Positions 5,974-63,667 of a stretch of 64,000 nucleotides of DNA are shown here, piece by piece; the stretch's first letter is position 1, and every line of letters starts with the position of its first letter. The notes beneath the pieces are model-generated. The model saw nothing but the letters and a program-made list of their open reading frames with translations, was not told the DNA's origin and searched no databases. The DNA comes from Squalus acanthias (taxonomy: Eukaryota), in assembly GCA_030390025.1 (NCBI GenBank), contig CM059432.1, positions 57,972,001-58,036,000 on the forward strand. The letters are read 5' to 3'. The position numbers and the translations under genes are program-made.

Positions 5974-6104
5974 CTCACATTTTCATAGCGATGTATGTAG
6001 ATTTTATGAAACTGGTGCTGTAAATGTTCATCTTCCACGTTTGACATATCATTAATCATCTCCAATACAACAAACCGTGGCAAGACTGAAAGAACCAGCC
6101 TCTC
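5974..6104 (-). CDS. ADCY8: ADCY8 coding exon 3 (131 nt)
   Basis: Acceptor attaag|GAG; encodes [43 protein letters not shown] plus AG; donor AG|GTAAGA; ends in phase 2. Confidence 0.96.
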
Positions 6105-6596
6105 CTTAATTATGTAAAAAAAACACACGCACACGTGGATATCATTAGCAATTATAGGCAATATATTCACAGAGGATTCTTTAGATTTGGAAGAAATGTA
6201 GTTAATACATCCACAACATCCTTCTCCACCCTCTTCAAGAGTATTCATTCTGGTTGAAAAGACTGACATACCTTTTCTTCAACTTTCACACAATGATTTA
6301 AATTCTGTTTTTCTTCTACTCAATATACTCTTGTAAAAATAATCAATGTAATGACCCCTGTTCAATCTCCCCATATTTTTTTAATATGTTTATTTCTCTC
6401 GCTCTCTCTTGGCATCCCAGACCTACGTATTTCCCAGCAGGCAGGACACAGATGCTCTTATAATTGTGATTGAGGGTCTTTTTTTCTCTCTCTTTATGGG
6501 GAAGCCCTTGACTTCCACTCAGTGGAGGCAATGTAACGTTTGATGATGGTGTAAGATGGGGGATATCGAATTAGATGCACGTTATACACCACACCT

Positions 6597-7180: not shown

Positions 7181-8179
7181 GAATCATAGAATCATAGAAT
7201 GGTTACACCTGGATCACTATTCTGTCACGTTCTTATCAAGAATTATTTGTAAATGATGCATTTTAGGCCTCATAGTTCTTATATGAGATCAGCACGGTCA
7301 TTCCTCTCCCCCTGATTACGAGTTTTATTGCTAAAGCAGAATACTGTAATATGGGCTAAGCTGCAAGCATGCAGCGATGTCACTTACTTAACATTTTCAA
7401 GAGAAAATAAAAAGAGATGTAATGCAAATCTTGGATGTCTAAATAAGTGAGCACAGAATACTTTGAACGGAGAAAAAAGAAATAGATGAGGAACATTCAC
7501 AATAACTAAATGAAAAGGTTACTTAATAATATAACAAAAGGAATGGATTTGCCACTGAAATTTAGTTTCCCATTAATAATGTTCTTAATACACCAACATG
7601 CACATGAATTTGCATTTCAAAGTAAGCTCAGTATTGATTGCATCTCAGCAAAATAATTCTTGCCGTATTATAGATTAAATGAGAAGCAAAGCTGAGTTGT
7701 ACCTCTAATAAAAATGTAGAATTCTTATCCTTACATATCTTTGCAATTTTAATTGAAGATAAAATAAATTCAGCAGAATGCCTCATTAACCCTGACAGCT
7801 GTGATGATGTACCTTATGAGATGCATTTATATCTGGCGTGATTGGAGAGAAGGATATGTAAGCACAATATATGTATCAGTGAATTTTCTTCCTCAACCAC
7901 AAAATGATAACAGATATCCTTTTATCTGACCTTCACAAATTACAGATAGTTTTAAAGAGGTTTCTACCTGCGAATGTTAATGGTGAATGAGTAGCAGCAT
8001 ATCATCTTTTTTCATTAGTTTGCAATTGAAAATATCAACCTTTGAGTAATGCTCCAGAATGATCACCTTCCCAACACTTCATAGAATAGACAATTTTTTT
8101 TTATCAGTTTGAATAAAAATTGATGTCAGAAGCAGAATGATTGGAGTGGGGGGGGGGGGGGGACTGGATAACACAATGC

Positions 8180-8453
8180 ATTAGAACATTGGGGTATAAC
8201 TTCGTCTTGTGATCGCGCAAAATGGGCAATAGGGAATCACAGCCCATTTTGCACGCTGGACGATTTTCTTTTCCATTGACTTCAGTGCAAAATGAAAATC
8301 GGACGGAGTGCGAAATGGACTCCCGATTCACTACCGCCCATTATACACTACCGCCCATTATACACTACCGCCCATTATACACTACTGCCCATTATACACT
8401 ACCGCCCATTATACACTACCGCCCAACATGAATTTATACCTCAATGTTCTAAT
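8180..8453. mobile_element. Palindromic MITE with an internal 17-bp tandem expansion
   Basis: Inverted ends ATTAGAACATTG(G/A)GGTATAA; centre CATTGACTTCAGTG, similar to the element at 77-259. Confidence 0.65.
8329..8425 (+). repeat. Minisatellite (CACTACCGCCCATTATA) x about 5.7
   Basis: Five full 17-bp units plus a 12-bp partial unit; one substitution in unit 4. Confidence 0.95.
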
Positions 8454-8969
8454 TTAAAACCCGTTGTCTCTTCACCACTAGAACCTGGCTTTGAATCAAG
8501 CTGAAATTGATGTGATGAAAATCTCTGTTTTCTAATATCTAAATAAAATATAATTAAAAAATAATACACAATTAAAATCTCATCTCCAAAAAAAAAGAAA
8601 CAATCCTCGCCCTGAGTTTTTGTGACATGTACAAGGATTCGTACTCCAGCACACTGTGCGGCAGAATTTTAGGTGATGTTGCGATTACAATTCCACACTT
8701 GGCAAGTTCCTGCAGGAAGTCAAGCACATTTCATATTTGAGCCCCGCACACACACCTTTGAAAAGCTGCCATTAGCAGAAGCCTGTGAGCAGTTTGTCTA
8801 TTTACCCTTTCAGTCAGGGAACGGTTCATGTTATAGGTCAGGGGTAAAAAAAAGTGGCCAAAAATAAAATGTTTTAAAAAAAGCAGGCTGTTTATTATAA
8901 CTTGGACAGAGATGCATTGTTAAAGAAGCTTTCCAAAACACAGATTAACTGTCTGTTGATTAGAAGTGA

Positions 8970-9140
8970 GAAGTTGCACAACACCAGGTTATAGTCCAAC
9001 AGCTTTATTTGAAGCTTCACCTGACGAAGGAGCAGCGCTCCGAAAGCTTGTGATTTCAAATAAAGCTGTTGGACTATAACCTGGTGTTGTGCGACTTCTC
9101 ACATTTGTCCACCCCAGTCCAACACCGGCATCTCCACATC
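8970..9140 (+). mobile_element. Short Penelope-type retroelement with 14-bp TSD
   Basis: TSD TTGATTAGAAGTGA at 8956-8969 and 9141-9154; 48-bp inverted arms (8966-9013 and 9055-9102) flank a hammerhead motif. Confidence 0.8.
9017..9053 (+). ncRNA. Minimal type I hammerhead ribozyme motif
   Basis: TCAC CTGACGA A GGAGC AGC GCTCC GAAA GCTT GTGA: stem I TCAC/GTGA, core CUGACGA, stem II GGAGC/GCTCC, GAAA, palindromic minimal stem III AGCU, putative cleavage triplet CUU. Confidence 0.75.
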
Positions 9141-11252
9141 TTGATTAGAAGTGATCACAATCCCAGCATGTATATTTTCTCCTGATATTTAGGAAGGAGG
9201 TAGAATGTGATAAGTGGCCACAAAAAATTAGGGAAACAGCTTTAGGGATACGATCACAAGATAGTGTCTTCATTAACTCCTGCTTCGCTTCCATTGTATT
9301 GACAACACACAGAATGCATGCACACATACAGCATGTAATCCCTGATGGGCATTATATCAAGACACCACCAGCAGATTGTGAAAGATTGTATTCATTCAAT
9401 ACATCAGTCATTTTGTGCTGAAAAGCTTTGAAAGAGAGCTTGAACCGAAGAAAGAATGAACTGTTAACTGTTTCTGACACTACACTTGTTAACATAACCA
9501 ATATTGCATTCTGTTCCAGCATCACTTCAAAAACAGATTTCCTATTATATTTCTTTTACACGGCAAAATATTGTGTTAAAATGTTTCCAGGAAGCTCAAT
9601 ACATCACTGAAATACTGTATTTACTGAATAAATGTTGTTATATTTAATGGATCCATTCCACATGCTTGAAGTGCTAAGCTATTAAAGTAATCAACAATTT
9701 ACTACTAAAGAAGTAACCGTGCAAAACCTATTAATATTGGTAAAGCTGGTTTCCCTACTAGTGGCATAAGGCCATAGTCAAACAGCATCTGGGCTTTCAG
9801 GAACTTGATTTATTCGACTTCAAATTCAGAAAAATTATCTTTAAAGTGACAATATTTCCAAATGGTCAAATGAAAGGCTGAACTTAGCTGATATTTTAAA
9901 CACCATCTTAGTGATATCATGTACACGTCAGCTTAGGGTCTTAGTCAGAGCTCAGTAAGAATAACTGATATCTGGAATTACTACTGTAACAGAATAAACA
10001 GTCTATTCCCAAGTGTTTCTTATTGTAGTTTGATCGATTATTGCACAATGAGTTTGAGCACACCTGCCAAGTAAAGGACAGGGGGTTCTGTCAGCTCTCT
10101 TGAATCACGGGAATAACGCTTTAGACCTATTTGTGGTTTCTTTATAACTAGCTGGAGGTGATTTGAGAAGAAACTGGTTGATTATAATAACTTTGTAACA
10201 GCAGAAAGGAAGATTCCATTCTGAATGGTAGAATTCAGTGTGATAACTGCTTGCCAACACTACTAAAGGAATCTTGTTTATGAAACTCAGAAACAAAACA
10301 GTCTCCCAATATTTTTTGAGAAACCATGATAATGGCCTAATGCACAGAACACCACTAATATTGAAAAGGCAAGGAGAGAAGACAAGCTCAGTCAAGAAGT
10401 AGTCATTATGTAAATGATGTGCATGTAATATATATCGTCTTCCCATTTGAGTGGTGAAAAATCATGAACTTATTCAAATAATTACTGAATAATAGCTAAT
10501 AATGAAAGTCAACTGTATTTCTGAATATATGATTAAATGCTAATTGCAGAACTAATCTTCACTTAGTAATTGTGAAATTGCTAACAAATCAAATCTGGCA
10601 TTCATGGTGCCATGTTCAGTAGGTCCCTATCTTACTATTTGGTGCCGTTTAGTTTCAGGAAGGTCGGTGACGTGGTTAAAATCTGCTACACCAACTCGCA
10701 ATTTGATTTACTGCTGACAAGAGCGCCACCAAACAAAACTTTGACTTGGTCATAATTGTAATGATGTCCATACCCTGACGGGTAGCTTTAGATCATAATC
10801 ATTGTGAAGTTAATGAATCTGTCAGCTTCTCAGAGCGTCAGTTCGTTAATCGGAGTGTACGAATACTGAATAGAAAATCGAGGCAGTTTTCATCATTATA
10901 CAGGGTTACTCGCTGCTGGCCCTTTAATACGGTCTATATAAACGGGATCTCTTTTCAAATGGAATTATTCATCACTGGTGCTTAATGCTGCAAATTATAG
11001 ACTCGGAATTCCTTCTGCTTGAAATACAGAACTCCAGCATAATTTAAAATTAAAGCATTAATAATTGATATCATAGAGCTTAAAATATAAATTAATCTGT
11101 TGTAGTCCAGCAAATGACATTTACATTTTTATTTGTTTCTACTTGCAAACTCTTAAAATATATTTGTTTGACATTATATTAGGATTGGATTTTGTGGTTA
11201 TGTCTTCAAGAGGCTAAGCCAGTTGCGCCTGTATCTCAGATTCCGCCCTTAC

Positions 11253-11402
11253 CTGTCTCTGATTCTCTGTTTCCAGCCGAAGTCTGGCTTCTATACATCT
11301 CCTGGTTTCCAGGAACGCCTGGCGCTGAGCTCGGTCTGCCAGGTAACTGATAAATATCCCGGCCGTGTTCATACACATGAACAACACCGACTGGGCTATC
11401 AC
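11253..11402 (-). CDS. ADCY8: ADCY8 coding exon 2 (150 nt)
   Basis: Acceptor tttcag|GTG; encodes [50 protein letters not shown]; donor CAG|GTAAGG; phase 0-0, in frame with exon 1. Confidence 0.97.
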
Positions 11403-13400: not shown

Positions 13401-14258
13401 CTGGTTTGTGGTTGGGATTGCACCTCGGGGGATGAGTAGCTGTACCACAACGTGGAGAGTGGATGTCAGGAAGCCAGCCAAGATCGCCCAGGTCAAGGGC
13501 AGAGGAAGCATGCTGTATGTGGCAAAAAGGGTAAAAAGCACGTAGCCGATGCCGTCTCCCAACAGTCCGTAGCCGAGGCCAGTGGCCAGAATCTGAGTGG
13601 CCATAACCACCCAGGTCACCAGGCCGCTGTACTGCAGATAACTGTGCGAAGTCGTGTCTTTCTTCACCACCACTAAGGCACAGATAACCACCTCGATGCC
13701 GGTGAAAAATCCCAGCAGGATGCCTTTGGCTGGGTCCATGGGGGTCGAGGCCAAGGTTAGGTGAAGAATCAGGACGGTCAGTTTGGTCAGCACGTCCAAG
13801 ATGTTCATCACTACCACCGACTTGCGCCTCTGACCCAAGAAGTAGCGCTGGTAGAGTCGCTCCAGATCCCTGGACTTGAAGGAGTTCTTCAGAGTTGGGA
13901 AGATCACCCCTCGGTAGGTGTAGCCCCAGTTGAGAAAGAAGTCGGAATTACTGGGGGCGCAGTCCAGGTGCAGGAAGCCCAGATCGTTGCTTGTGCGCTC
14001 AGGGAACACTTTGGTGCTCCCGTTGTTGTGTCCGCTTATGGACATCTTGCCCGCAGATTGCTTCCTTCTGTTGGGACTCCATGAGTCTTCCGAAGAGGAG
14101 ATGGTTTTGGCGCTGGTTTGTTCGTTTATGAACCTCTGTTCGGTGATGTGCCGAACCGCATTTTGCCAAAGCAGTCTTTTAGGTCTCGTTCCTGGAGTCT
14201 TGTTAATGGTATAGAGTTCGTCGCTTGCGCTGGAGCATCTAACCTCAGATAATTCCAT
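13401..14258 (-). CDS. ADCY8: Adenylate cyclase type 8, coding exon 1 (286 codons: N-terminal cytosolic domain and most of the first transmembrane cluster)
   Basis: Translation MELSEVRC...[16 protein letters not shown]...[19 protein letters not shown]...[21 protein letters not shown]...[15 protein letters not shown]...TNQ matches vertebrate AC8 as I know it. ATG at 14258; donor CAG|GTAGCG after 13401; phase 0. Confidence 0.97.
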
Positions 14259-14883
14259 GATTTTGTATTTCCTTATTAGTAACACACTATAAAATTACCA
14301 CGAGCGTCCTTTCATCTTCCATATTTAGCCAAGGATACTTTGCAACACAGATTAGCGACTGCTCAAACCTCACAGGCCTGATTCCAATGACCATACTCAC
14401 GATAGCTGCTTTCCCCTCAATTAATTATCGCATCCTTTAATCGGAAGCCCAAATATTTCTAACCTGGAGATCTTGCATCCCGTCTTTAATGAAAAGTCGA
14501 GTCTGGGGAACGAGCCTCATTTCCCGGTTCTCGCCCCTGCTCGTCTGCGGATGACAAGAGTAACTGGATTCCCGTCAGAAAGAGCGCCGGACATCCCACT
14601 AAGTAAACAGGGTGGTAAAAGTGTTCCGAGCTAAGTGGTTTTCTACTGGAGACAGGACGCGGGGCTGAAGGCGAGCCACAGAACCGCACCACAGCTCCAC
14701 TGGGCGCCCGTGCTGAGAATAGCGAGCAAGCGGAGGCAGTGGAGCGGCCCCTGCTCGTCTCAGTCTCGCTGCTTGTCTTAGTCTTGCTGCTGGCATTAGA
14801 GTTGTTGATAGTGTCAGTGCCGGGTATGGAATGGATTAAAACGCGTACTGAGGCTGACAGAGAAACGCTGAGGGTGGGGGTGC

Positions 14884-16065: not shown

Positions 16066-16121
16066 TCATGGATCTTCAATTTGTTCACATACTTGCTTTT
16101 AGACTGCAATTCATTAACGTA

Positions 16122-16224
16122 ATAGAAACAGAAAATGCTGGAGATACTCAGCAGGTCAGGCAGCATCTGTGGAGAGAGAAACAGAGTTAACGTTTCAGGT
16201 CGATGACCTTTCGTCAGACCTTTT
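16122..16224 (-). mobile_element. Penelope 3'-end insertion with hammerhead core, 9-bp TSD
   Basis: TSD ATTAACGTA (16113-16121 and 16225-16233). Minus strand reads CTGACGA A AGGTC ATC GACCT GAAAC GTT AACT. Confidence 0.8.
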
Positions 16225-31094: not shown

Positions 31095-33298
31095 ACATAA
31101 GAACATAAGAACAACATAAGAACATAAGAACATAAGAAATAGGAGCAGGAGTAGGCCAAACGGCCCCTCGAGCCTGCTCCGCCATTCAATAAGATCATGG
31201 CTGATCTGATCCTAACCGCCAATCTACTATCTATCACAGAACCATCTCCTGCATCTAACAGAATTGCACACACGAAATAGGAGCAGAATCAGGCTACACA
31301 GTCCCTGGGCCCGCTCCACTACCCACAGGGCCATGACCGATCCGAACCTAGACTCATGTCCAAATTCCTGCCCGCTCCCCGTAACCCTTAATGCCCTTTA
31401 CTTCTAGGAAACTGTCTATTTCTGTTTTAAATTTAATTAATGTTGTAGCTTCTACAGCTTTTTGTGGCAGCATATTCCATGGACCTACCACCCTCTGAGT
31501 GAAGTAGTTCCTCCTCATCTCAGTTTTGAAAGAGCAGCCCCTTATTCTAAGACTATGTCCCCTAGTTCTCGTCTCACCCGTCATCGGGAACATCCTCCCC
31601 GCATCCACCCGATCCAACCCCTTCACAATCTTATATGTTTCAATAAGATCGCCTCTCATTCTTCTGAACTCCAATGAGTAGAGTCCCAATCTACCCAACC
31701 TCTCCTCATATGACCACCCCCTCATCCCCGGGATTAACCGAGTGAACCTTTTTTGCACTGCCTCGAGAGCAAGGATGTCTTTCCTTAAGTAAGGACACCA
31801 AAACTGTATGCAGTATTCCAGGTGCGGTCTCACCAATACCTTGTACAACTGAAGCAATACCTCCCTATTTTTATATTCTATCCCCCTAGCAATGAAAGCC
31901 AACATTCCATTTGCCTTCTTAATCACTTGCTGCACCTGCATACTAACCTTTTGAGTTTCGTGCACCAGGACCCCCAGATCCCTTTGCACTTCAGTACTCT
32001 CCAGTTTCTTGCCATTAAGATAATAAATTGCTCTAGGATTTTTCCTGCCAAAGTGCATCACCTCACACTTTCCAGTGTTGTATTCCATCTGCCAAATCTC
32101 TGCCCACTTACTTAGCCTGTCTATGTCCCCTTGCAGGTTTTTTATGTCCTCCTCACTCACTACTTTCCCTCCCATCTTTGTATCATCTGCAAATTTTGAT
32201 ATGTTACACTTGGTCCCTTCCTCCAAATCGTTAATATAGATTGTGAAGAGTTGGGGACCCAGCACTGACCCCTGTGGAACACCACTAGTTACTGATTGCC
32301 AGTCTGAGAATGAACCATTTATCCCAACTCTTTGCTTTCTGTTAGATAGCCAATCCTCTATCCATGCCAGAATATTACCCCCAATCCCGTGATTTTTTAC
32401 CTTAAGCAATAATCTTTTGTGTGGCACCTTGTCAAATGCCTTTTGGAAGTCTAAATACACTACGTCCACTGGTTCCCCTTTATCCACTCTATATGTTACT
32501 TCCTCAAAGAACTCCAGCAAATTTGTCAAACATGACTTCCCCTTCGTAAAACCATGCTGACTTTGTCCTATTAAATTATGATTATCCAAATGTCCTGTTA
32601 CTGTTTCCTTAATAATGGACTCCAAAATTTTACCTACCACAGATGTTAGGCTAACCGGTCTATAGTTACCAGCCTTCTGTCTACTGCCCTTTTTAAATAA
32701 GGGTGTTACATTAGCAGTTTTCCAGTCTGCCGGGACCTTAGCGGAATCCAGGGAGTTTTGAAAAATTATTACCAATGCATCTACAATCCCTACCGCCACT
32801 TCCTTCAAGACTCTAGGATGTAAGCCATCAGGTCCAGGTGATTTATCCGCCTTGAGTCCCATTATTTTACCGAGTACCACTTCCTTAGTGATTTTGATCG
32901 TGTTTAGCTCCTCTCCCCCTATAGCCCCCTGTTTGTCCAGTGTTGGGATATTCTTAGTGTCCTCTACTGTAAAGACTGATACAAAATAATCATTCAGTGT
33001 TTTTGCCATCTCCATATTTCCCACCATTAATTTCCCGGTCTCATCCTCTAAGGGACCAACATTTACTTTAGCCACCCTTTTTCTTTTTATATAACTATAA
33101 AAACTCTTACTATCTGTTTTTATATTTTTTGCTAATTTACTTTCATAATCTATCTTCCCTTTCTTAATCAATCTTTTTGTTATTTTTTGCTGCCTTTTAA
33201 AGTTTTCCCAATCCTCTGTCCTCCCACTAGATTTCGCGACCTTATATGCCCTTGTTTTTAGTCGAATACTATCCTTAATTTCTTTACTTAGCCACGGA
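31095..33298 (-). mobile_element. Young 5'-truncated CR1 with an uninterrupted RT-containing ORF (about 650 codons, stop at 31354)
   Basis: Open frame PWLSKEIK...KSPGPDG...NYRPVSLTS...QHGF...GVPQGSVLGP...FADDTK...GIWT; (ACATAAGA)n tail; TGGA TSD. The first 27 or so residues of the listed 675-aa ORF come from the adjacent MITE. Confidence 0.95.
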
Positions 33299-33303
33299 TG
33301 GAG

Positions 33304-33457
33304 CAATGTTCCCTGTAATTTTTTATTGGCCCTGTGCGGCCCCTTTAAAGGGCTGCGCGGGCAATTCAAAATATCGCACATGCGGGGTTGTTACGTTGAA
33401 AAACCGGCAAGCCAGCTGCGCGGGTTCCCTGGAGCCCACAATTTACAGGGAACATTG
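33304..33457. mobile_element. hAT-type MITE (154 bp)
   Basis: TIR CAATGTTCCCTGTAA; 8-bp TSD ATCTGGAG (right copy 33458-65; left copy split by the young CR1). Confidence 0.85.
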
Positions 33458-34081
33458 ATCTGGAGCGACTGCATTCAGTTCTGGGCACCACACCTCAGGA
33501 AGGATATATTGGCCTTGGAGGGAGTGCAGCGCAGATTCACCAGAATGATACCAGGGCTAAAAGGGTTAAATTATGGTGACAGGTTGCATAGACTAAGCTT
33601 GTATTCTCTTGAGTATAGAAGATTAAGGGATGATCTAATTGAGGTGTTTAAGAAGATTAAAGGATTGATAGGGTAGAGAGAGAGAAACTATTTCCTCTTG
33701 TGGGAGAGTCCAGAACAAGGGGCAGAACCTTAAATTTAGAGCTAGGCCATTCAGAGGTGATGTCAGAAAGCACTTCTTCACTCAAAGGGTAGTGGAAATC
33801 TGGAACTCTCTCCTCCAAAAGGGTATCATGTGTACCAAAAAGTGTACCAATAATAAAAACAGAAAATGCTGGAAATACTCAGCAGGTCAGGCAGCATCTG
33901 TGGAGAGAGGAACAGCGTTAATGTTTCAGGTCGATGACCTTTTGTCAGAACTGGAAATGTTAGAGCCGCCGGGCCAAACTTCCTCTAAGGTTCCCTCCTG
34001 CCCTAGACTGAACTCAAATCTTTCTCCAGTTTCATCTCTGATTTCCCCTCATGATCTCTCTGTGATCATCTTGTTCATGAG

Positions 34082-39246: not shown

Positions 39247-42200
39247 GTTAGCTGATGTTAGCTGATATTGTTAACGGTTCTCTCTCAGGTACTGTCCCCC
39301 TCTCCTTCAAATCTGCAGTCATCACCCCTCTCCTCAAAAAACCAACCCTTGACCCCTCCGTCCTTGCAAACTACTGCCCCAGTTCCAACCTCCCTTTCCT
39401 CTCCAAATTCCTTGAACGTGTTGTCACCTCCCAAATTCAAGCCCATCTTTCCCGGAACTCCATGTCTGAATCCCTCTAATCAGATTTCCGCCCTGACACA
39501 GTATCGAAACGGCTCTTATTAAAGTCACAAATGATATCCCATGTTACTGTGACAAAGGTAAATTATCCCTCTTCATCCTTCTCGACCTGTCTGTAGCCTT
39601 TGATAAGGTTGACCACTTCATCCTCCTCCAACGCCTCTCCACCATCGTCCAACTGGATGGGACTGCGCTCGCCTGGTTCCATTCTTATCTATCTAATCGC
39701 AGCCAGAGAATCACCTGCAATGGCTTCTCTTCTCCGCTCCTGCATCGTTACCTTTGGTGTCCCTCAATGATCTACCCTTGGCCTCCTCGCATTTCTCATC
39801 TAAATGTTGCCCCTTGATGACATCATCTGAAAACACAACAGCCAATTTCCACATGTAGCTGACGACACCCAGCTCTACCTCACCACCACTTCTCTCGACC
39901 CCTTCACTGTCTCTAAATTGTCAGACTGGTTGTCCGACATCCAGTACTGGATGAGCAGAAATTTCCTCCAATTAAATAATGGGAAGACCAAGCCATTGTC
40001 TTCGGTCCCCACCACAAACTCCATTCACTAGCCACCAACTCCATCCCTCTCCTTAGCAACTGTCTGAAGCTGAACCAGACTGTTCGCAACCTTGGTGTCA
40101 TATCTGACTCTGAAAGAAACTTCTGACCACATATCCACGCCATAACTAAGACCGCCTATTTCCACCTCCGAAATATTGCCCATCTCCGCCCCTGCCTCAG
40201 CTCATCTGCTGCTGAAACCCTCATCCATGCCTTTGTTATCTCTAGACTTGCCTATTCCAATGAACTCCTGGCTGGCCTCCCACGTTCTACCCTATGTAAA
40301 CTCATCCAAAACTCGGCTGCCCATGTCCTGACTCGCACCTAATCCGGATCACCCATTACCCCTGTGCTCCCGGTTAAGCAACGCCTCGATTTTAAAATTC
40401 TCATCCTTGTTTTCAAATCCCTCCATGGCCTCGCCCTATTTCTGTAACGTCCTCCAGCCCCACAGCCCCCCGAGATATCCGTGCTCCTCTAATTCTGGCC
40501 TCTTGCGCATACCTGATTTAATCATTCAACCATCGGTGGCCGTGCCTCCTGTTGCCTCGGCCCTAAGCTCTGGAATTCCCTCCTAAACCTCTCCGCCTCT
40601 CTACCTCGCTTTCCTCCTTTAAGACGCTCCTTAAAAACTACCTCTTTGACCAAGCTTTTGGTCACCTGCCCTAATCTCTCCTTATGTGGCTCAGTGTCAA
40701 ATTTTGTTTTATGACACTCCTGTGAAGCGCCTTCGGATGTTTTACTATGTTAAAGGTGCTATATAAATATAAGTTGTTGATGTTGTAATAGGATTTAAGC
40801 AAGTGCAGAGGCAGGGAAATAGGGGGGGGGTGGGGGGTGGTGGAGGAAAGATCAAAAGGGAAGGCCTGTTAAAGGGTGGAAGGGAGGAGAGAATAAATGA
40901 CAAGAGGTATGATTGTCCATGGCAAAAGGAGATGGTAATGGGATAAGTAAAGAAACAAAAGATGGGTCTAGAAGAGGTGTAAGTGGGAATATTAGAATCA
41001 TCAGCAACAGCTGCCGTCTGAAAAAATGGGGGCAGAGGTTATGGTCTGAAATTGTTGAACTCAATGTCCAGAAGGCTGTAAAGTGCCTAATCGAAAGATG
41101 AGGTGCTGTTCCTCGAGCTTACATTGAGCTTACATTGGAACAGTGTCGGAGACCAAGGACTGAAAGGTCAGAGTGCGAGTGGAGCGGAGAATTAAAGTGA
41201 CAGGCAACCGGAAGCTCGGGGTCACACTTGTGGACTGAACAGAGGTGTGGTCACCCAATCTGTGTTTGGTCTCCCCAATCATGAGGAGCAAATACAGTAT
41301 ACTAAATTGAAAGAAGTACAAGTAAATCGCTGTTTCATCTGGAAGAAGTGTTTGGGGCCCTGGACGGTGGGAAGGGAGGAGGTAAATGGGCAGGTGTTGC
41401 ATCTCCTGCGCTTGCACGGGAAGGTGCCATGGGAAGGGGAGGGGTTGTTGGGAGTGACTGAGGAGTGGACCACAGTGTGGCGGAGGGAACGGTCCCTTCG
41501 GAATGCTGAAAGGGGAGGGGAGGGGAAGATGTGTTTGGTGGTGGGATCATGCTGAAGGTGGTGGAAATGGTGGAGGATGATCCGTTGAATGTGGAGGCTG
41601 GTGGAGTGGAAGGCAAGGACAAGTGGAACCCTATCGTGGTTCTGGGAGGAAGGGGAAGGGGTGAGAGCAGAATGGACACGGTCGCTGGTCCTGTCAACTA
41701 CGGTAGAGGGGAATCCTCGGTTGAGGAAAAAGGAAGACATACTGGAAGCACTAGTATGGAAGGTGGCATCGTCAGAACAGATGCGACGGAGATGGAGAAA
41801 CTGGGAGAATGGAATAGAGTCCTTACAGGAAACAGGGTGGGAGGAAGTGTAGTCATGGTAGCTGTGGGAGTCAGTGAGCTTAGAGTGGATGTTGGTCGAT
41901 AGCCTATCCCCTGAAATGGAGGCAGAGAAGTCGAGGAAAGGAAGGTAAGAGTTGGAGATGGACCATGTGAAGGTGAGGGAAGGGTGGAAATTGGAAGCAA
42001 AGTGAATGAAATTTTCCAGTTCAGGGCAAGAGCAGGAAACGGCACGGTTACAGTCATCAATGTACCGGAAAAGGAGATGAGGAATGGGGACCTGAGTAGG
42101 ACTGAAACAAAGAATGTTCCACATATCCCATGAAAAGGCAAGCATAGCTAGGACCCATGTGGGTTCCCATAGCAACACGCTTTATTTGGAAGAAGGGAGT

Positions 42201-43309
42201 AAAGTCAAAGGAGAAGTTGTTCAATGTGAGAACAACTTCAGCCAGGCGGAGGAGGGTGGTGGTGGATGGGGACTGATTGGGCCTCTGTTCAAGGAAGAAG
42301 CGGAGCGCCCTCAGGCCATCCGGGATAGAGGTGCAGAGGGATTGGACGTCCATGGTGAAAAGGAGATGGTTAGGGCCAGGAAACTGGAAACTGTTAAAAG
42401 TGACAGAGGGCGTTGGAAGAGTCGCGGATGCAGGTGGGAAGAAACTGGACAAGGGAGAAAAAAGAGTTGAGATAGGAAGAAATCTGTTCCGTGGGGCAAG
42501 AACAGGCTGAAAAGATGGGTCTACCAGAGCAGTCCTGTTTGTGGATCTTGGGACGGAGGCTTTGCAGGGGTTGGGTCGACTATGAGGTTGGAGGCCATGG
42601 AGGGAAGATCTCCAGAGGAGATGAGGTCAGTGACAGTCTTGAAAATGATAGCTTGATGTTTGGTAGTGGGGTCATGTTCCAGGGGGAGGTAGGAGGAGGT
42701 GTCAGAGAGTTGGCATTCAGCCTCCGCAAGGTAGAGGTTGGTTCGCCAAACAACAACAACGCACACTTGTCAGCAGGTTTGAAGACAATGTTAGGGTTGG
42801 ATCTGAGAGAACGGAGTGCTGCAAGTTCAGAGGGAGATAAGTTGGAGTGAGTAAAGGGAGCAAGAAATTGAGATGGCCGATGTCAAGCCAGCAGTTCACA
42901 ATGAAAAGATCTAGAGAGGGTAAGCCCACTGACTCCCACAGCTACCTTGACTACACTTCCTCCCACCCTGCTTCCTGTAAGGACTCTATTCTATTCTCCC
43001 AGTTTCTCCGTCTCCGTCGCATCTGTTCTGATGATGCCACTTTCCATACTAATGCTTCCGATATGTCTTCCTTTTTCCTCAAGATTTCTAAATAACTTCT
43101 GAGTAAGAATGTTTGCAACTCTACAACCAGCACTATTTAGAGTGATCACAGTCCAGCATGGCTAGTTATGATGTTCCATTAGATGCAAACTCATGCCAAT
43201 AATGTTTTTGTCATTAAGGGTTGTGATGGTGGATAAATGTCTCAAAGAGACCTGTACTGCAGATTAACCTGTGCCAAATCCTGATGGAACTACAGCTGGC
43301 TTGGAAGCA

Positions 43310-45681: not shown

Positions 45682-46872
45682 TCTTTTCAGTGTACTCTTT
45701 TGATGGGTACCAAAACAAATATCTGTAAATCAGTAAAACTTCAAAGGAAACTTAACAAATCAAATTAAAATTTGGTAGTCCGGGGTGACGATGCACTCCA
45801 GTCCCCGCGGCGCCCACCGGTCGCGGAAAAACTCAAGCGTGCCGGCGGACACCGCGTGCTCCATCTCCAGGGCCACCCGGGTGCGAACATGGCCGCGGAA
45901 GAGAGGCAGGCAATCGGGCTGAACGACCCCCTCGACCGCCCGCTGCCTGGACCAATTAATGGCCTTCTTGGCCAGGCCCAGGAGCAGTCCCACGAGGTGG
46001 TCCTCCGACCTGCCCGCTCCCCTCCGCACCGGATGACCGTAGATCAGGAGCGTGGGGCTGAAGTGCAACCAGAAATTGAGGAGCAGCCCCTTCAAGTAAT
46101 GAAAGAGGGGCTGCAACCTCTCACACTCTACGTATATGTGAAAAACGGACTCCTCCAGGCCGCAGAAATGACAAGCAGCCTGGGAGTCCGTGAACCTATT
46201 TAACATCCTATTGCACGGGACTGCTCCGTGCAACACCCTCCAGGCCAAGTCCCCAATAGAATAAGGGGTCTTTTCAGTGTACTCTTTTTTGGTTGGACAG
46301 AACCCAAATTAACTGTAAATCAATTAAAACTTTAAATGAAACTTAATAAATCAAATTAAAATTTGGTTGCCCGGGGTGACGATGCACTCCAGTCCCCGCG
46401 GCGCCCACCGGTCGCGAAAAAACTCAAGCGTGCCGGCGGACACCGCGTGCTCCATCTCCAGGGCCACCCGGGCGCGAACATGGCCGCGGAAGAGAGGCAG
46501 GCAATCGGGCCGAACGACCCCATCGACCGCCCACTGCCTGGACCAATTAATGGCCTTCTTGGCCAGGCCCAGGAGCAGTCCTACAAGGAGGTCCTCCAAC
46601 CTGCCCGCTCCCCTCCGCACCGGGTGATCGTAGATCAGGAGCGTGGGGCTGAAGTGCAACCAGAAATTGAGGAGCAGCCCCTTCAAATAATGAAAGAGGG
46701 ACTGCAACCTCTCACACTCCGTATAAATGTGAAACACGGACTCCTCCAGGCTGCAGAAATGGCAAGCAGCCTGGGAGTCCGTGAACCTATTTAAAACCCT
46801 GTTGCACGGGACTGCTCCGTGCAACACCCTCCAGGCCAAGTCCCCAATAGAATAAGGGGTCTTTTCAGTGTA
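45682..46872 (-). mobile_element. Two tandem 5'-truncated L1/Tx1-clade LINE 3' ends (period about 590 bp)
   Basis: Each encodes WRVLHGAVPCN...CHFC.LEESVFHIY.EC (zf-RVT CCHC motif); TCTTTTCAGTGTA occurs three times (left, middle, right). Confidence 0.9.
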
Positions 46873-50781: not shown

Positions 50782-52539
50782 TTATTCCGAGTCATCTGGT
50801 TCATCAGAAATATCCGTGCCAGCTGGGTCATCAGGATCACGCAGTTCCACCGATTCTTCAGGCACTTCCGCTGCTTCGACTCTTTTGGAAGCTTTCTTAA
50901 ACATGTTGCGGATGTCGGTTTGCTTAGTGGACTCTTGCCTTTTCTGTAGAAAGGTGGAATGCAGAATATGGAGTTGCATAACTTCTTGTGCAGTGTAGCA
51001 ATTCTGCCTTTCAGCAAATTTGAGGATTGTAGAAAATCCTTCTGCAGCTTTAGCCCAAGAAATCTTCTCTTCTTCAGAAATCTCATCCTCTTCACTTTCC
51101 ATCTCGCTTTCCTTTTCTTTCTTTGGATTCAAAACATTCTGAATTATTTCATCATCACTTAGCATATGCACAACACCAACTTCTCTATCTGCATCAACCC
51201 ACTGCTCGATATCACTTTCACTGAGGTGACGTAGAGGGTTTGCTGGGCCTGCATTTTTCACCATTCCAGCCATTTCCATTATTGTACTCTTCTTGGGACG
51301 AACACTGAACCCATGAAATTCCTCCTCTGAAGAAGAACCTTCAGCAAACATTACAGAAGGCCACAATTTGCGCCAGGCTTGCCTCAGAGTGTGACCTTTC
51401 ACCAATTTCCAGGAACATGCAACATTATAGATGGCATCTTTAATATTGTATTCCTTCTGCAAATCTTGAATATTCTCATCTTGGCTTAGCAGTTTACGTA
51501 GGAAGTCTTTCTTGTAATGACACTTCAGATTTTGGATAACGCCCTGGTCCATGGGTTGGATGAGAGAAGTTACATTTGGTGGCAAATAAATGGTGAAAAT
51601 ATTTCCCGAAACCAACTGGGATTCATGCGGATGGGCTCTGCAATTATCAAGCAATAAAATGCATTTGCTATCTTCAGGTTTCCCTATTCTGCGGAAATGT
51701 TCCTTCACAGATGGAACAAAAATATGATGGAACCAATCGGAGAAGATTTCCTTATCCATCCAAGCATTTTTTTGAGCTTTGTACTCAACAGGTAAGTGCC
51801 TCACATTTTTAAATGCACGGGGATTTTTATACTTCCCGATAACAAGAAGTTTAACCCGGTGTGATCCAGCAGCGTTCGCACATGTTAGCACGGTTACACG
51901 ATCTTTATTTTTCTTGTAACCTGAAGCATTAGCCTCACTAGCCCCAGCAAGCGTTGATTCTGGCAAAAACCTCCAAAACAAGCCAGTTTCATCGGCATTG
52001 TAGATCTGTGCTGGCGACAAATCATGTTGCTGCACAATCCGATTGAAATAATTGCAGTATTCTTCTGCGGCTTCGTGATCAGCTGATTTCTTCTCCCCGG
52101 AAATATCGAGTCGTCGTATCCCGTGCCGTAACTTGAAGCACGTTAGCCATCCATCGGAGAAAGCACACTTGTCAGTGAGCTCCATCCTATCGTAGAATTC
52201 CTTCGCTTTCTCGATGAGCATGGGTCCGGAAATTGGAACACCCTCTGAACGCTTAAGAGAAAACCATTCATAAAGCACGGTATCCAGCTCTTCAAGCTTA
52301 GGCTTACGAAGCGTACGCCGTTTCTCTACACTCTTGCATGTCTCCGAGCTTGAATAAAACTTGAGCAGCTTATCCTTCTGCGATTTGATGTCGTAGATTG
52401 TTGACGAACCGATTTTGAATTCATTCATAATGTTGATACGCTTCTCTCCCCTTTCTAGTCGTTGGCATATCTCGATTTTCTGTTTTAAAGTTAAGACCAC
52501 TCTCTTCCTTTTGCTTGGACCAGCTTTTGGGAATTCCAT
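50782..52539 (-). CDS. Tigger/pogo transposase (585 aa, CENP-B/Jerky-like, DD32D)
   Basis: ATG at 52539 ([13 protein letters not shown]); two CENP-B-type HTH domains; catalytic [18 protein letters not shown] and IQPMDQGVI with 32 residues between the last two Asp; acidic C-terminus; no stops or frameshifts. Confidence 0.93.
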
Positions 52540-52593
52540 AATGCAAGATGGAGGAGATAATTGCCGATGAAGATGGAAAGACACACAGAACAA

Positions 52594-52920
52594 TGGTGGC
52601 TAGGAAGAGACTACCAGCAGCGTGGCAGACACACAGCAAAATGGTGGATCAGAAGAGACTACAGTACCAGCAGCGTGGCAGACACACAGTAAAATGGTGT
52701 ATCAGAAGAGACTACAGTACCAGCAGCGTGGGAGACACACAGTAAAATGGTGGATCAGAAGAGACTACAGTACCAGCAGCGTGGCAGACACACAGTAAAA
52801 TGGTGGATCAGAAGAGACTACAGTACCAGCAGCGTGGGAGACACCCAGCAAAATGGTGGATCAGAAGAGACTACCAGCATCGTGGGAGACACCCAGCAAA
52901 ATGGCCGATCCGAAGAGACT
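52594..52920 (+). repeat. 53/48-bp minisatellite (about 6 units) inside the Tigger 5' region
   Basis: Units start at 52594, 52642, 52695, 52748, 52801, 52854 and 52902 (partial); consensus TGGTGGATCAGAAGAGACTACAGTACCAGCAGCGTGG(C/G)AGACACACAGTAAAA. Confidence 0.93.
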
Positions 52921-59086: not shown

Positions 59087-62000
59087 AACATAAGAAATAG
59101 GAGCAGGAGTAGGCCATTTGGCCCTTCCAGCTTGCTGCACTATTCAATAAGATCATGGCTGATCTACCTCATTTCCACTTTCCCGCCCTATCCCCATATC
59201 CCTTGATTCCCTTCGTATCCAAAAATCTATCAATCTCTGTCTTGGATATACTCAATGACTGAGCATCCACAACCCTCTGGGGTAGAGAATTCCAAAGATT
59301 CACAACCCTTTAAGTGAAGAAATTTCTCCTCATCTTAGTCCTAAATGGTCAGCCCCTTATTCTGAGGCTGTGACCCCGCTAGGCCTAGAAATTTGGCAGC
59401 GGTAAAAAGCTGCCGGTGCCACTGCGGGCCAGTGTTAATGGCTGCCGTAAACTGAAAGCGAGGTTGCCATTTCAGAAGGCAGTTCGGTCCCTTAAAGGGG
59501 AACTGCCTTCTGAAATGAAAAAAACAAAAATGAAGTAAAAAAAATACAGTTTTCAGCCCTTACAGTTCAATTGCCTTTTAAAAAAAATTTACATTTGAAA
59601 TAAACATTCCCAAATGGGAGTCTTTAGCTCTTAAAGCTGAATTCCCTTTCGCACCTCAAAAAATGGGAAAAGTGCTTCAGCACAAATACAAATGGCTCAG
59701 CAAGCCAGAGAAGGGGCACCCAGGGTCTCGCAAGCTGCACTCCAGCTTTGTGCAGGGGGTCAACACTGCAAAAGAGGTCTTCTACCCACAGGGGCCAGGA
59801 GATCCTCCAGAAAAAAGGATGATGCCAGCAGTGTCGCCCCCCACAACCTGGCTCCAGTGCCCAAAGAAACTTCATGGACTCAGACCACTGGTCAAGGTCA
59901 GTGAATACATCTTCAAAAGTCATCTCCTAACAACCAGCCTCACATACTTCTCAATGCACGACTCCCCCTCCTCCAATCACTCTCCTACCAACAATCTGTA
60001 CCAAACAAGAGGCACACCTCCCATTCCTAGCTTCATCTCACCCCCTTGGAGGAGATGGTGCTGGCCATTCTTGGCAGGGACATGGCTGAGCCCTTAGCCA
60101 GCAGCGGGGATGAAAGGATACAAGATGCTTGTATCCTCATACATTATCCTCTTTCTCACATGCACCTCTTGCTTTCTCGCCCTCCCTTCACCACAACTCC
60201 ACCCTTGTGCCTTCCTCATTTCACACACCTAAGAAATGCAGCCTGCCCAGCCAGTGGTTGACCAAGAAGAGGGAGAGGAGAGTGCAGTGGAAGGAGAAGA
60301 AGAAACACCATCACTCGATTTCACACTCCCAGCCAATAGCTCCTCAAGGTCAACCAGCAAGGCCATTTGCAGTGCTCCACTGAAAGTCAGCAGCCTTACA
60401 CCAGCCATGCTGCAGCCACTGGGGTAACACTGCATGACATCAGTAGGATAGGCAAAGGCACACACAAGACAGTCACTAAGGGAATGCATAAGGGTGATGA
60501 GTTAATTTCTTGATGTAATATTGGATGCATATATGGATAAAGTTGGATTGGAAAGTTTGCTTTGTGGTGGCTTTTATTTTAGCTTTGTAGCCAAGAGGAC
60601 ACTGTGATGGTCAGTAACAGAGGGAAGGTAAGATGTGGGACAAATGTTGAAAGGGGAATTGGGGTTGTGGTGACTGGGACCGCAGACGATGATTCTATCC
60701 CGGATATCCTGGCCAGAAAGGGGCTGTCTGTGTTGCATCCTTCCTTCTGCTACCTCCTCTTCTGCTACCTCCTCTTCTGCTTCCTCCTCTTCCGCTTCCG
60801 CTTCCTCTTCTTCTGCATCTTCCTCTTCTGTGTCTTCCTTTTCCCTCTGCGAGCAGATGTTGGAAATCTGAAGTAAAAGCAGAAAACGCTGGAAATACTC
60901 AGCAGGTCAGGCAGCATCTCGATCTGAGACGTGAACTCTGTTTCTCTCTCCATGGATGCTGCTTGACCTGCTGAGTATTTCCAGCATTTTCTGTCTTCTC
61001 AGAGGCAATACTTCAATAAAATAAAAAATATCCAGTCCAAAAGCTTAATACAAACTTACCTGAAAGATATGTGTAACCGTTTAAGAAGTGTGACAGCGTC
61101 TCTGTCAGTCTGCTGCACACTTAAGACCCAGCGCTAAGGTTGAAGTTCACAGAGTGTGATGTTAAGTCAGCATTGCACGCCGACTGACGTCACGCTCTCA
61201 ATATTTGCATCTCCAGGGCTAGCGCTGCTGACCCTTTTCTAGCCGAGTCCCACGCTAGAGAAAGGCGTTAGAGTGGTGGCCGCCATTTTTCACCAGGATT
61301 GCGGCCCTAACTCATGGCGATAAGATAGGGAATTTCTGGGCCCTAGTTCTAGAATGCACAGCCAGGGGAAACATCCTCCCAGCATCTACTCTGTCAAGTC
61401 CCTTAAGATTTTTATATGTTTCAATGAAATCACCTCTCATTCTTCGAAACTCTAGGGAATATAGGCTTAGTCTACTCAATCTCTCCTCATAGGACAATCC
61501 CCTCATCCCAGGAATCAGTCTTGTGAACCTTCATTGCACTCCCTCTAAGACAATTATATCTTTCCTTAGGTAAGGAGACCAAAACACTACACAGTACTCC
61601 AGGTGTGGTCTCACCAAGGCCCTATATAGTTGCAGTCAGGCTTGTTTACTCTTATATTGGCTGTACTTCATTGGCTGTAAAGCGCTTTGGGACGTCCGGT
61701 GGTCATGAAAGGCGCTATATAAATGCAAGTCTTTCTTTTTCTTTCTTTATATTCCAATCCCTTTTTAATAAAGATTAACATACCACATGCTTTCCTAATT
61801 GCTTGCTGTACCTGCATGTTAACTTTCTGTGATTCATGTACAAGGACACCCAGGTCCCTCTGAATACAAACATTTCCCAGTCTCTCACTTTTTAAAAAAA
61901 TATTCTGCTTTTCTATTTTTCCAATCAAAGTGGATAACTTCACATTTCTCCACATTATATTCCAGCTGCCACCTTCTTGCCCACTCATTTAACCTGTCTA

Positions 62001-63330: not shown

Positions 63331-63566
63331 ATTTAAAGATGGAGCTATGTGGGATACTTTTATGAAGTCAAACTTAATTTTAATGGACAGAAAATCTTGG
63401 GATTGGTGCCTGAATTCGTGAAATGTACCCCTGGTAAATGAGACCTGCCAGAAATACAATTTCATAAAATTACCCTTCTGGGTTAAATGGTGCTAATTTG
63501 GTTGTGATGGATTTTTAAACTACATTTATGACAATTCCAAGAGTAAAGAGGTATTGGAATATTTTT

Positions 63567-63667
63567 AATAGAAACAGAAAATGCTGGAAATACTCAGCAG
63601 GTCAGGCAGCATCTGTGGAGAGAGAAACAGAGTTAACGTTTCAGGTCGATGACCTTTCGTCATGTTT
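63567..63667 (-). mobile_element. Penelope 3'-end insertion with hammerhead core, 16-bp TSD
   Basis: TSD GTATTGGAATATTTTT (63551-66 and 63668-83); nearly identical to 16122-16216. Confidence 0.85.

Follow-up and report, generated by a model that had tools for sequence, protein, structure and literature searches.

A hairpin insert that carries a minimal hammerhead motif in an intron of the adenylate cyclase 8 gene (ADCY8) results from one recent insertion and is a dead end. It represents the shortest type of insertion made by its parent, a very abundant Penelope-like element (PLE), and is no mobile unit of its own. The insert is 171 nt long and lies in the window, the whole 64,000-nucleotide stretch of Squalus acanthias DNA that was analyzed. 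Its exact central junction has one match in the 3.7 Gb of genome searched, and thus the insert does not qualify as a mobile unit. The hairpin is a by-product of integration, since head-to-head arms with one tail of ~40 nt are the published PLE footprint. As outlined for EN+ PLEs, this footprint consists of an inverted 5′-truncated copy, a one-sided 30–40 nt tail, and a target-site duplication (TSD), all of which are also found here (PMC3846280, PMC8557442). Accounts of individual elements, including Pen2a_Av of Adineta vaga (PMC3846280) and D. virilis Penelope (PMC2377424), and a general scheme (PMC8557442, Fig. 2) likewise combine head-to-head inverted ends with the tail and TSD. Unlike the EN+ PLEs in these accounts, the insert holds only the terminal ~130 nt twice over, without an ORF, and its copies number in the tens of thousands.

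The insert and its locus

The features of the locus are as follows, with element positions numbered from the first base of stem I (+1).

8956..8969, no strand: 5′ TSD, 14 nt; single copy at the empty sites X6 and X7; its last 4 nt match the arm too
8966..9013, minus strand: inverted tail-less arm, copying element positions about +39 to +86
9014..9014, plus strand: junction base G, non-native (native base A), of ambiguous origin at this locus
9015..9140, plus strand: direct arm, the element end from −1 to +124, hammerhead front to tail end
9017..9053, plus strand: minimal type I hammerhead motif; predicted cut 9049/9050, bulged A 9028, loop-less palindromic AGCU 9045–9048
9055..9102, plus strand: 3′ side of the 48-bp hairpin, within the direct arm
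9103..9140, plus strand: 38-nt PLE "tail", on one arm only
9141..9154, no strand: 3′ TSD, 14 nt, from the direct repeat and the empty sites
13404..14294, minus strand: frame holding the first coding exon of adenylate cyclase 8, by homology match

The direct repeat (8956–8969/9141–9154) is identical at 14/14 positions. In two related organisms (X6 and X7), position 8955 is joined directly to 9141 with one copy of the repeat, which confirms the 14-nt duplication and shows that the insertion is young, both as an earlier note on this DNA had claimed. A third related organism (X11) is also without the insert. In a second individual of the same organism (X5), the insert is present according to flank-to-arm contigs, none of which spans the junction.

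Recomputation of the inverted arms (8966–9013/9055–9102, 48 nt, 98% complementary) returned the previously described 47/48 pairs and one G-U wobble, with four of the 48 positions (8966–8969) falling within the TSD. These last 4 nt of the 5′ TSD are a microhomology at the tail-less end. The wobble lies at T8975, where 28/30 aligned copies have C, and the difference reads as a CpG-type change. When the minus strand, the pre-mRNA sense, is folded, this site becomes an A-C mismatch. Folding z-scores are −14.0 for the plus strand and −13.7 for the minus strand, and 0/200 shuffles were equally stable. Additionally, 9116–9124 is complementary to 9067–9075, a predicted stem that brackets the end point of the tail-less arm.

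The minus-strand exon at 13404–14294 matches adenylate cyclase 8 with E 3.9e-123, compared with E 2.6e-9 for type 5, and the next two ADCY8 coding exons lie near 11230–11400 and 6010–6110. The earlier placement in intron 2 agrees with the position found, the intron after the second coding exon (only coding exons being considered), more than 2 kb from either flanking ADCY8 exon. Because the host exons are on the minus strand, the ribozyme is antisense to ADCY8, again as stated before.

The window holds other repeats. On the minus strand, 50782–52599 is an apparently unbroken 605-aa open frame, which we take to be a pogo/Tigger-type transposase look-alike, and 31354–33390 is a 678-aa LINE reverse transcriptase (RT) frame with several related fragments elsewhere in the window. 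A ~600-bp head-to-tail duplication (45682–46872; 93% alike) covers a LINE C-terminal coding region. Broken minus-strand frames at 41279–42626 contain RT-like motifs (YIDD) near a small inverted repeat (41721–41882/42921–43082) and resemble another Penelope-like ORF.

The hammerhead motif

Stem I of the motif is formed by 9017–9020 and 9050–9053, followed by the core CUGACGA (9021–9027) and a 5-bp stem II (9029–9033/9037–9041). GAAA occupies 9042–9045, AGCU 9045–9048, and U17 is 9049. The earlier description of a minimal type I hammerhead holds in this anatomy; it had left out the unpaired A 9028, which sits between A9 and G10.1. Predicted pairing probabilities in the window insert are 0.93–1.0 for stem I and ~1.0 for stem II. 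The covariance-model search that had been proposed returned no Rfam hammerhead family at E up to 10 for 8000–10000, only hairpin-driven miRNA matches far below gathering scores. The assignment therefore rests on anatomy and on variation within the family.

As far as its sequence can tell, the window motif has the traits of the minimal hammerheads of PLEs: the core, the bulge, the G10.1-C11.1 pair, and the palindromic 15.2–16.2 segment without loop 3. The published description of these ribozymes gives the same conserved core, a bulge between 9 and 10.1, the G10.1-C11.1 pair, a palindromic loop-less helix III, a 4-bp helix I, and an occurrence mostly as single motifs or opposite-strand pairs, as here (PMC4209133). 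Helix II has 5 bp here compared with 7–8 in S. mansoni, and helix I of the window copy, unlike that of the described motifs, is extended by the 48-bp stem that results from the inversion (PMC4209133). Monomers in that report showed no cleavage and dimers a weak one; the text examined does not mention cartilaginous fishes (PMC4209133). For the present motif, cofolding of two units is predicted to pair AGCU with AGCU.

Conservation and covariation across copies, which the earlier note had named as a check, were seen in 81 arms, although core invariance in this set is partly circular since the arms were chosen by the core pattern. N7 is C in 57, A in 10, G in 9, and T in 5, while H17 is T in 61, C in 19, A in 1, and never G. 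The bulged A is present in 81/81 arms and GCT follows GAAA in 79/81. The second pair of stem I is C-G in 39 arms, T-A in 31, and T-G in 7 (unpaired in 2, misparsed in 2), a covariation that may reflect few events, as the subfamilies are related. Loop II ranges from 2 to 8 nt, the outer pair is broken in 22 arms, and a single two-sided change in stem II occurs, confined to one of the 81 arms. Given that the core columns picked the arms and that the subfamilies are kin, this variation supports selection on the hammerhead but does not prove it.

The ribozyme of the insert is probably silent, as judged from its setting. No promoter was found within the insert, the window repeat comparison revealed no tandem partner at the locus (a single unit in the window), and transcription of ADCY8 runs on the opposite strand. 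The capping of the hairpin by the ribozyme is accidental: in the commoner sister junction class, the longer arm sequesters stem I, whose predicted pairing probability is 0. An unmasked ribozyme atop a long stem would arise by chance from where the shorter cDNA stopped.

A second repeat family in the window has a minimal hammerhead of its own, with stem II AGGTC/GACCT and the palindrome AACGTT. It is intact at 16120–16217 (minus strand), altered at 33851–33952, cut within the core at 63566–63662, and folded back at 60874–60999. This family is probably another PLE.

Parent element, arms and junctions

Exact matches to the hammerhead core number 25,479 in the genome, and those to a 35-mer from the 3′ part at least 64,776; the reversed controls gave 0 in both cases. 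Long copies are 96–99% alike, and in them an open frame of up to 669 aa precedes the shared end by ~310 nt. The 669-aa frame, the single ORF upstream of the terminal repeat, contains an RT domain (PF00078, E 8.8e-9). Its C-terminal part resembles GIY-YIG clusters (score 0.96; PF01541 on 18–23% of members) and includes a YIG motif, while a Pfam scan of the frame gave no GIY-YIG match and a PDB search with the ORF found nothing below E 0.2. A Cys-rich linker, C-x4-C-x2-C, lies between RT and EN and looks like a Neptune-like trait. Putatively RNA-derived contigs (X9, X16, X17, and X19) cover the element end. Because the same end follows an RT plus GIY-YIG-like frame in the long copies, the insert appears to be the pseudo-LTR (pLTR) end of an autonomous PLE with these two domains, in line with the Penelope origin already proposed.

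The arms were studied in a set of 114 from the first 5.9 Mb of contig C1, with one duplicate locus dropped. Their ends were mapped against a 44-arm library, as a single-subfamily reference is unreliable for other subfamilies, and ends beyond about −390 are censored. The 3′ ends form two groups, at +85 to +96 and +124 to +127, and few lie elsewhere. Among 41 head-to-head pairs within 3 kb, 39 combine one tailed and one tail-less arm, and the remaining two look like unrelated neighbors. A flank word of at least 10 nt (median 12) is common to 35/40 pairs, one pair having been dropped, compared with 4/1560 mismatched pairings. The duplication amounts to 12–14 nt. Arms within a pair differ by 2.1/65 nt compared with 5.2 when shuffled, and 0/2000 shuffles were as low (36 pairs). 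Many of the insertions (loci L033, L034, L038, and others) lie in LINE RT-like sequence. We take the host LINE to be CR1-like.

The junctions between arms vary. Short junctions form a continuum (1,719 matches, as judged among the first 100 listed), and removal of 7 nt between two AA from the junction of a 59-copy sister class yields that of the window insert. Of 30 copies analyzed among these 59, 10 carry the tail on the hammerhead arm and 20 on the inverted arm. The two arms share a diagnostic base in 25 of the 30 and differ at it in 2, with 3 unreadable. The sister class draws on at least two subfamilies. In a BLAST search for copies, as suggested before, the best matches share both outer boundaries and the whole shape with the window insert; a tandem array, also envisaged, is absent at the locus and the junction is unique. 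These common outer ends correspond to the two fixed sites at which RT begins. Of the two labels previously offered, a non-autonomous or a 5′-inverted derivative, inversion stands in the head-to-head footprint, and a unit spreading in this shape does not.

Two sets of neighboring insertions stand out. The insertions at C1:2938293 and C1:3041881 have different flanks and TSDs, their tails on opposite arms, and a genome-unique junction in common; those at C1:3433146, 3966996, and 3983686 also have different flanks and TSDs and one genome-unique junction. Both complex junctions were considered as markers of a mobile fold-back family and rejected, occurring only 2 and 3 times. These sets show that centers are not always made anew and point to conversion of palindrome centers from a nearby copy, or to rare local copying or re-mobilization.

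The 5′ boundary and the origin of the mirror shape

The 5′ ends of the arms are concentrated where the ribozyme begins, with 26/87 stopping in −4 to +5. In three 10-nt intervals from −15 to −44, only 3/49, 0/46, and 1/46 arms stop. The pile-up is broad, with 14/101 stopping in +6 to +15 and 12/61 in −5 to −14, and end calls can slip by a few bases. By eye, there is no excess of arms ending at the predicted cut (3/111 stop in +26 to +35), a comparison confounded by stem I microhomology. Most arms pass through the cut site, which is what a template of uncut RNA would give. TATATA is found 30–31 nt before the A of ACTT in the two commonest subfamilies, this A being within an Inr-like TCACT; subfamilies with other upstream sequences have no clear TATA at −30. 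The pair of TATA and Inr-like TCACT in the pLTR was also noted for a rotifer EN+ PLE (PMC3846280). This promoter type is not universal among PLEs, as D. virilis Penelope is described with a TATA-less internal promoter (PMC2377424).

A non-native base often marks this boundary. Behind a non-native purine, 3,635 arms begin at ACTT, and the purine is G in 80 of the first 100. This 80:20 excess weakens against a local null, as partner ends are themselves G-rich (G:A 10:4 in the last 30 nt; p 8e-4 at null 0.65). The G arm is the tailed one in 12/20 cases and the tail-less one in 7/20, and the partners of ACTT-starting arms have ends that vary from −2 to +68. Both arms reach ACTT at 365 loci. In the first 50 of these, the spacer is a single G/C in 26, which may equally be the native C at −3, a single A/T in 0, and blunt in 1. 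The other 23 have longer spacers, with G before both arms in 9 and the native C before both in 2 (p 5e-6 at 1/16). At the window locus, the G precedes −1 rather than −2 and could be left over from the loss of 7 nt from the sister junction. The single central base reads on the contig plus strand as C in 21/26 loci and as G in 5. Such a strand bias has no known biological cause and may be an effect of assembly or polishing. Clustering of arm ends at a base with a non-native G is undescribed in the EN+ PLE texts examined (PMC3846280, PMC8557442, PMC2377424).

We consider it probable that the mirror shape results from two cDNAs, primed at both target ends, of a capped and uncleaved RNA, joined head to head. 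The RNA would start at the A three bases before stem I, with TATA at −30 and the Inr-like TCACT, which would place the hammerhead within the first 40 nt of the transcript. The element protein would cut both target strands ~12–14 nt apart. RT would begin at the tail end (+124 to +127) from one target end and at an inner position (+85 to +95) from the other. The two cDNAs would be extended in the direction of the capped start of the still uncleaved RNA, on occasion with an extra base copied from the cap, and their 3′ ends would anneal via a few bases. At the window locus, one cDNA would have reached −1 and the other stopped at +39, leaving the hammerhead unmasked atop the 48-bp stem.

Cutting and extension of both strands has been seen in vitro for Poseidon PAc of Anolis carolinensis, which starts RT at two sites bounding the tail, with uncleaved RNA as the template (Frangieh et al., 2024, PMC11167929). 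The two groups of arm 3′ ends match these two start sites. The PAc hammerhead lies at the pLTR-ORF junction, and the lizard motif needed protein; unlike PAc, the parent here has the Cys-rich linker, and the PAc text examined gives no model for an inverted junction or a capped 5′ boundary (PMC11167929). Twin-primed L1 insertions, as described, involve two cDNAs from two target ends joined by microhomology, as proposed here (PMC2912911). Full-length L1 and SVA 5′ ends also carry an extra G, like the arms, for which the copied cap is a known source (PMC2912911). However, L1 twin priming joins non-overlapping segments from a random inner site (PMC2912911), whereas here both cDNAs would copy the same segment from two fixed sites, which would give the palindrome.

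Other routes to the same shape are less compatible with these data. Self-priming on an antisense template was proposed for rotifer PLEs (PMC3846280), and a single-primed cDNA or antisense RNA that folds back near the hammerhead would also yield concordant arms, with the pile-up reflecting RT stalling at the ribozyme stems and not an RNA start. In many short pairs, the turn does coincide with a local palindrome, for example stem II or AGCT. Such a fold-back is nevertheless unlikely, given that the tail occurs on either arm within one junction class (10 compared with 20), that both arms often end at the same base with G before each, and that both strands are extended in vitro (PMC11167929). DNA repair could instead have collapsed a longer inverted insertion or swapped its center. 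The unique junctions common to nearby insertions (C1 at 2.94/3.04 Mb and 3.43/3.97/3.98 Mb) fit this route, and collapse may be the origin of the last 7-nt difference between the window locus and its sister junction. As a general explanation it is improbable, because arm ends clustered at one base with a non-native G are not what random central deletion would be expected to leave.

Spreading of the insert as a non-autonomous fold-back or retrozyme-like element, transcribed and self-cleaving as a dimer, is more improbable still. The matches alike in boundaries and shape and the family-level covariation of the hammerhead would suit it, and animal non-LTR retrozymes are similarly reported as non-coding and pLTR-derived with a type I hammerhead (bioRxiv 10.64898/2026.07.22.740005). 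Those retrozymes form head-to-tail tandems with at least two ribozymes, whereas the window insert is a single inverted stub (bioRxiv 10.64898/2026.07.22.740005). The shared outer ends are accounted for by fixed RT start sites, junction lengths are continuous, tail polarity and subfamily vary inside one junction class, and the locus has neither a tandem unit nor a promoter in the insert. Retrozyme-like spreading of this copy is largely refuted by its unique junction. Co-option as an ADCY8 regulator through double-stranded RNA or editing is the least credible possibility and would be very surprising. A 47-bp duplex that includes one A-C mismatch would form in ADCY8 pre-mRNA, and long RNA duplexes are ADAR substrates. 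However, the insert is absent from three related organisms, its distance from either exon exceeds 2 kb, and tens of thousands of like hairpins exist in the genome.

The ADCY8-intron locus is ordinary, one among tens of thousands of stubs and with no sign of function, and the insertion is a clean species-specific marker whose empty sites are carried by relatives. The structure and the motif are already in print. A capped-boundary, untemplated-base, or twin-priming reading for PLEs, or a shark PLE hammerhead, was not found in the literature, mostly open-access main texts. On balance, although with less assurance than for the two-cDNA route, the thousands of fold-back stubs can be regarded as a fossil record of two fixed priming sites, a capped uncut start, and a cap-templated base that aids joining. 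If this is correct, head-to-head inversion and the one-sided tail are explained without an antisense template. The hammerhead would then act as a guard of the mRNA 5′ end, whose cap it would remove by cleaving, and would not process the transposition template. Both the building of PLE inverted repeats and the role of the hammerhead are stated as open in the texts available (PMC8557442, PMC3846280, PMC11167929), and this family would provide a test set for them, as the arm-end statistics predict a start at the A before stem I and a cap-dependent extra base at the junctions.
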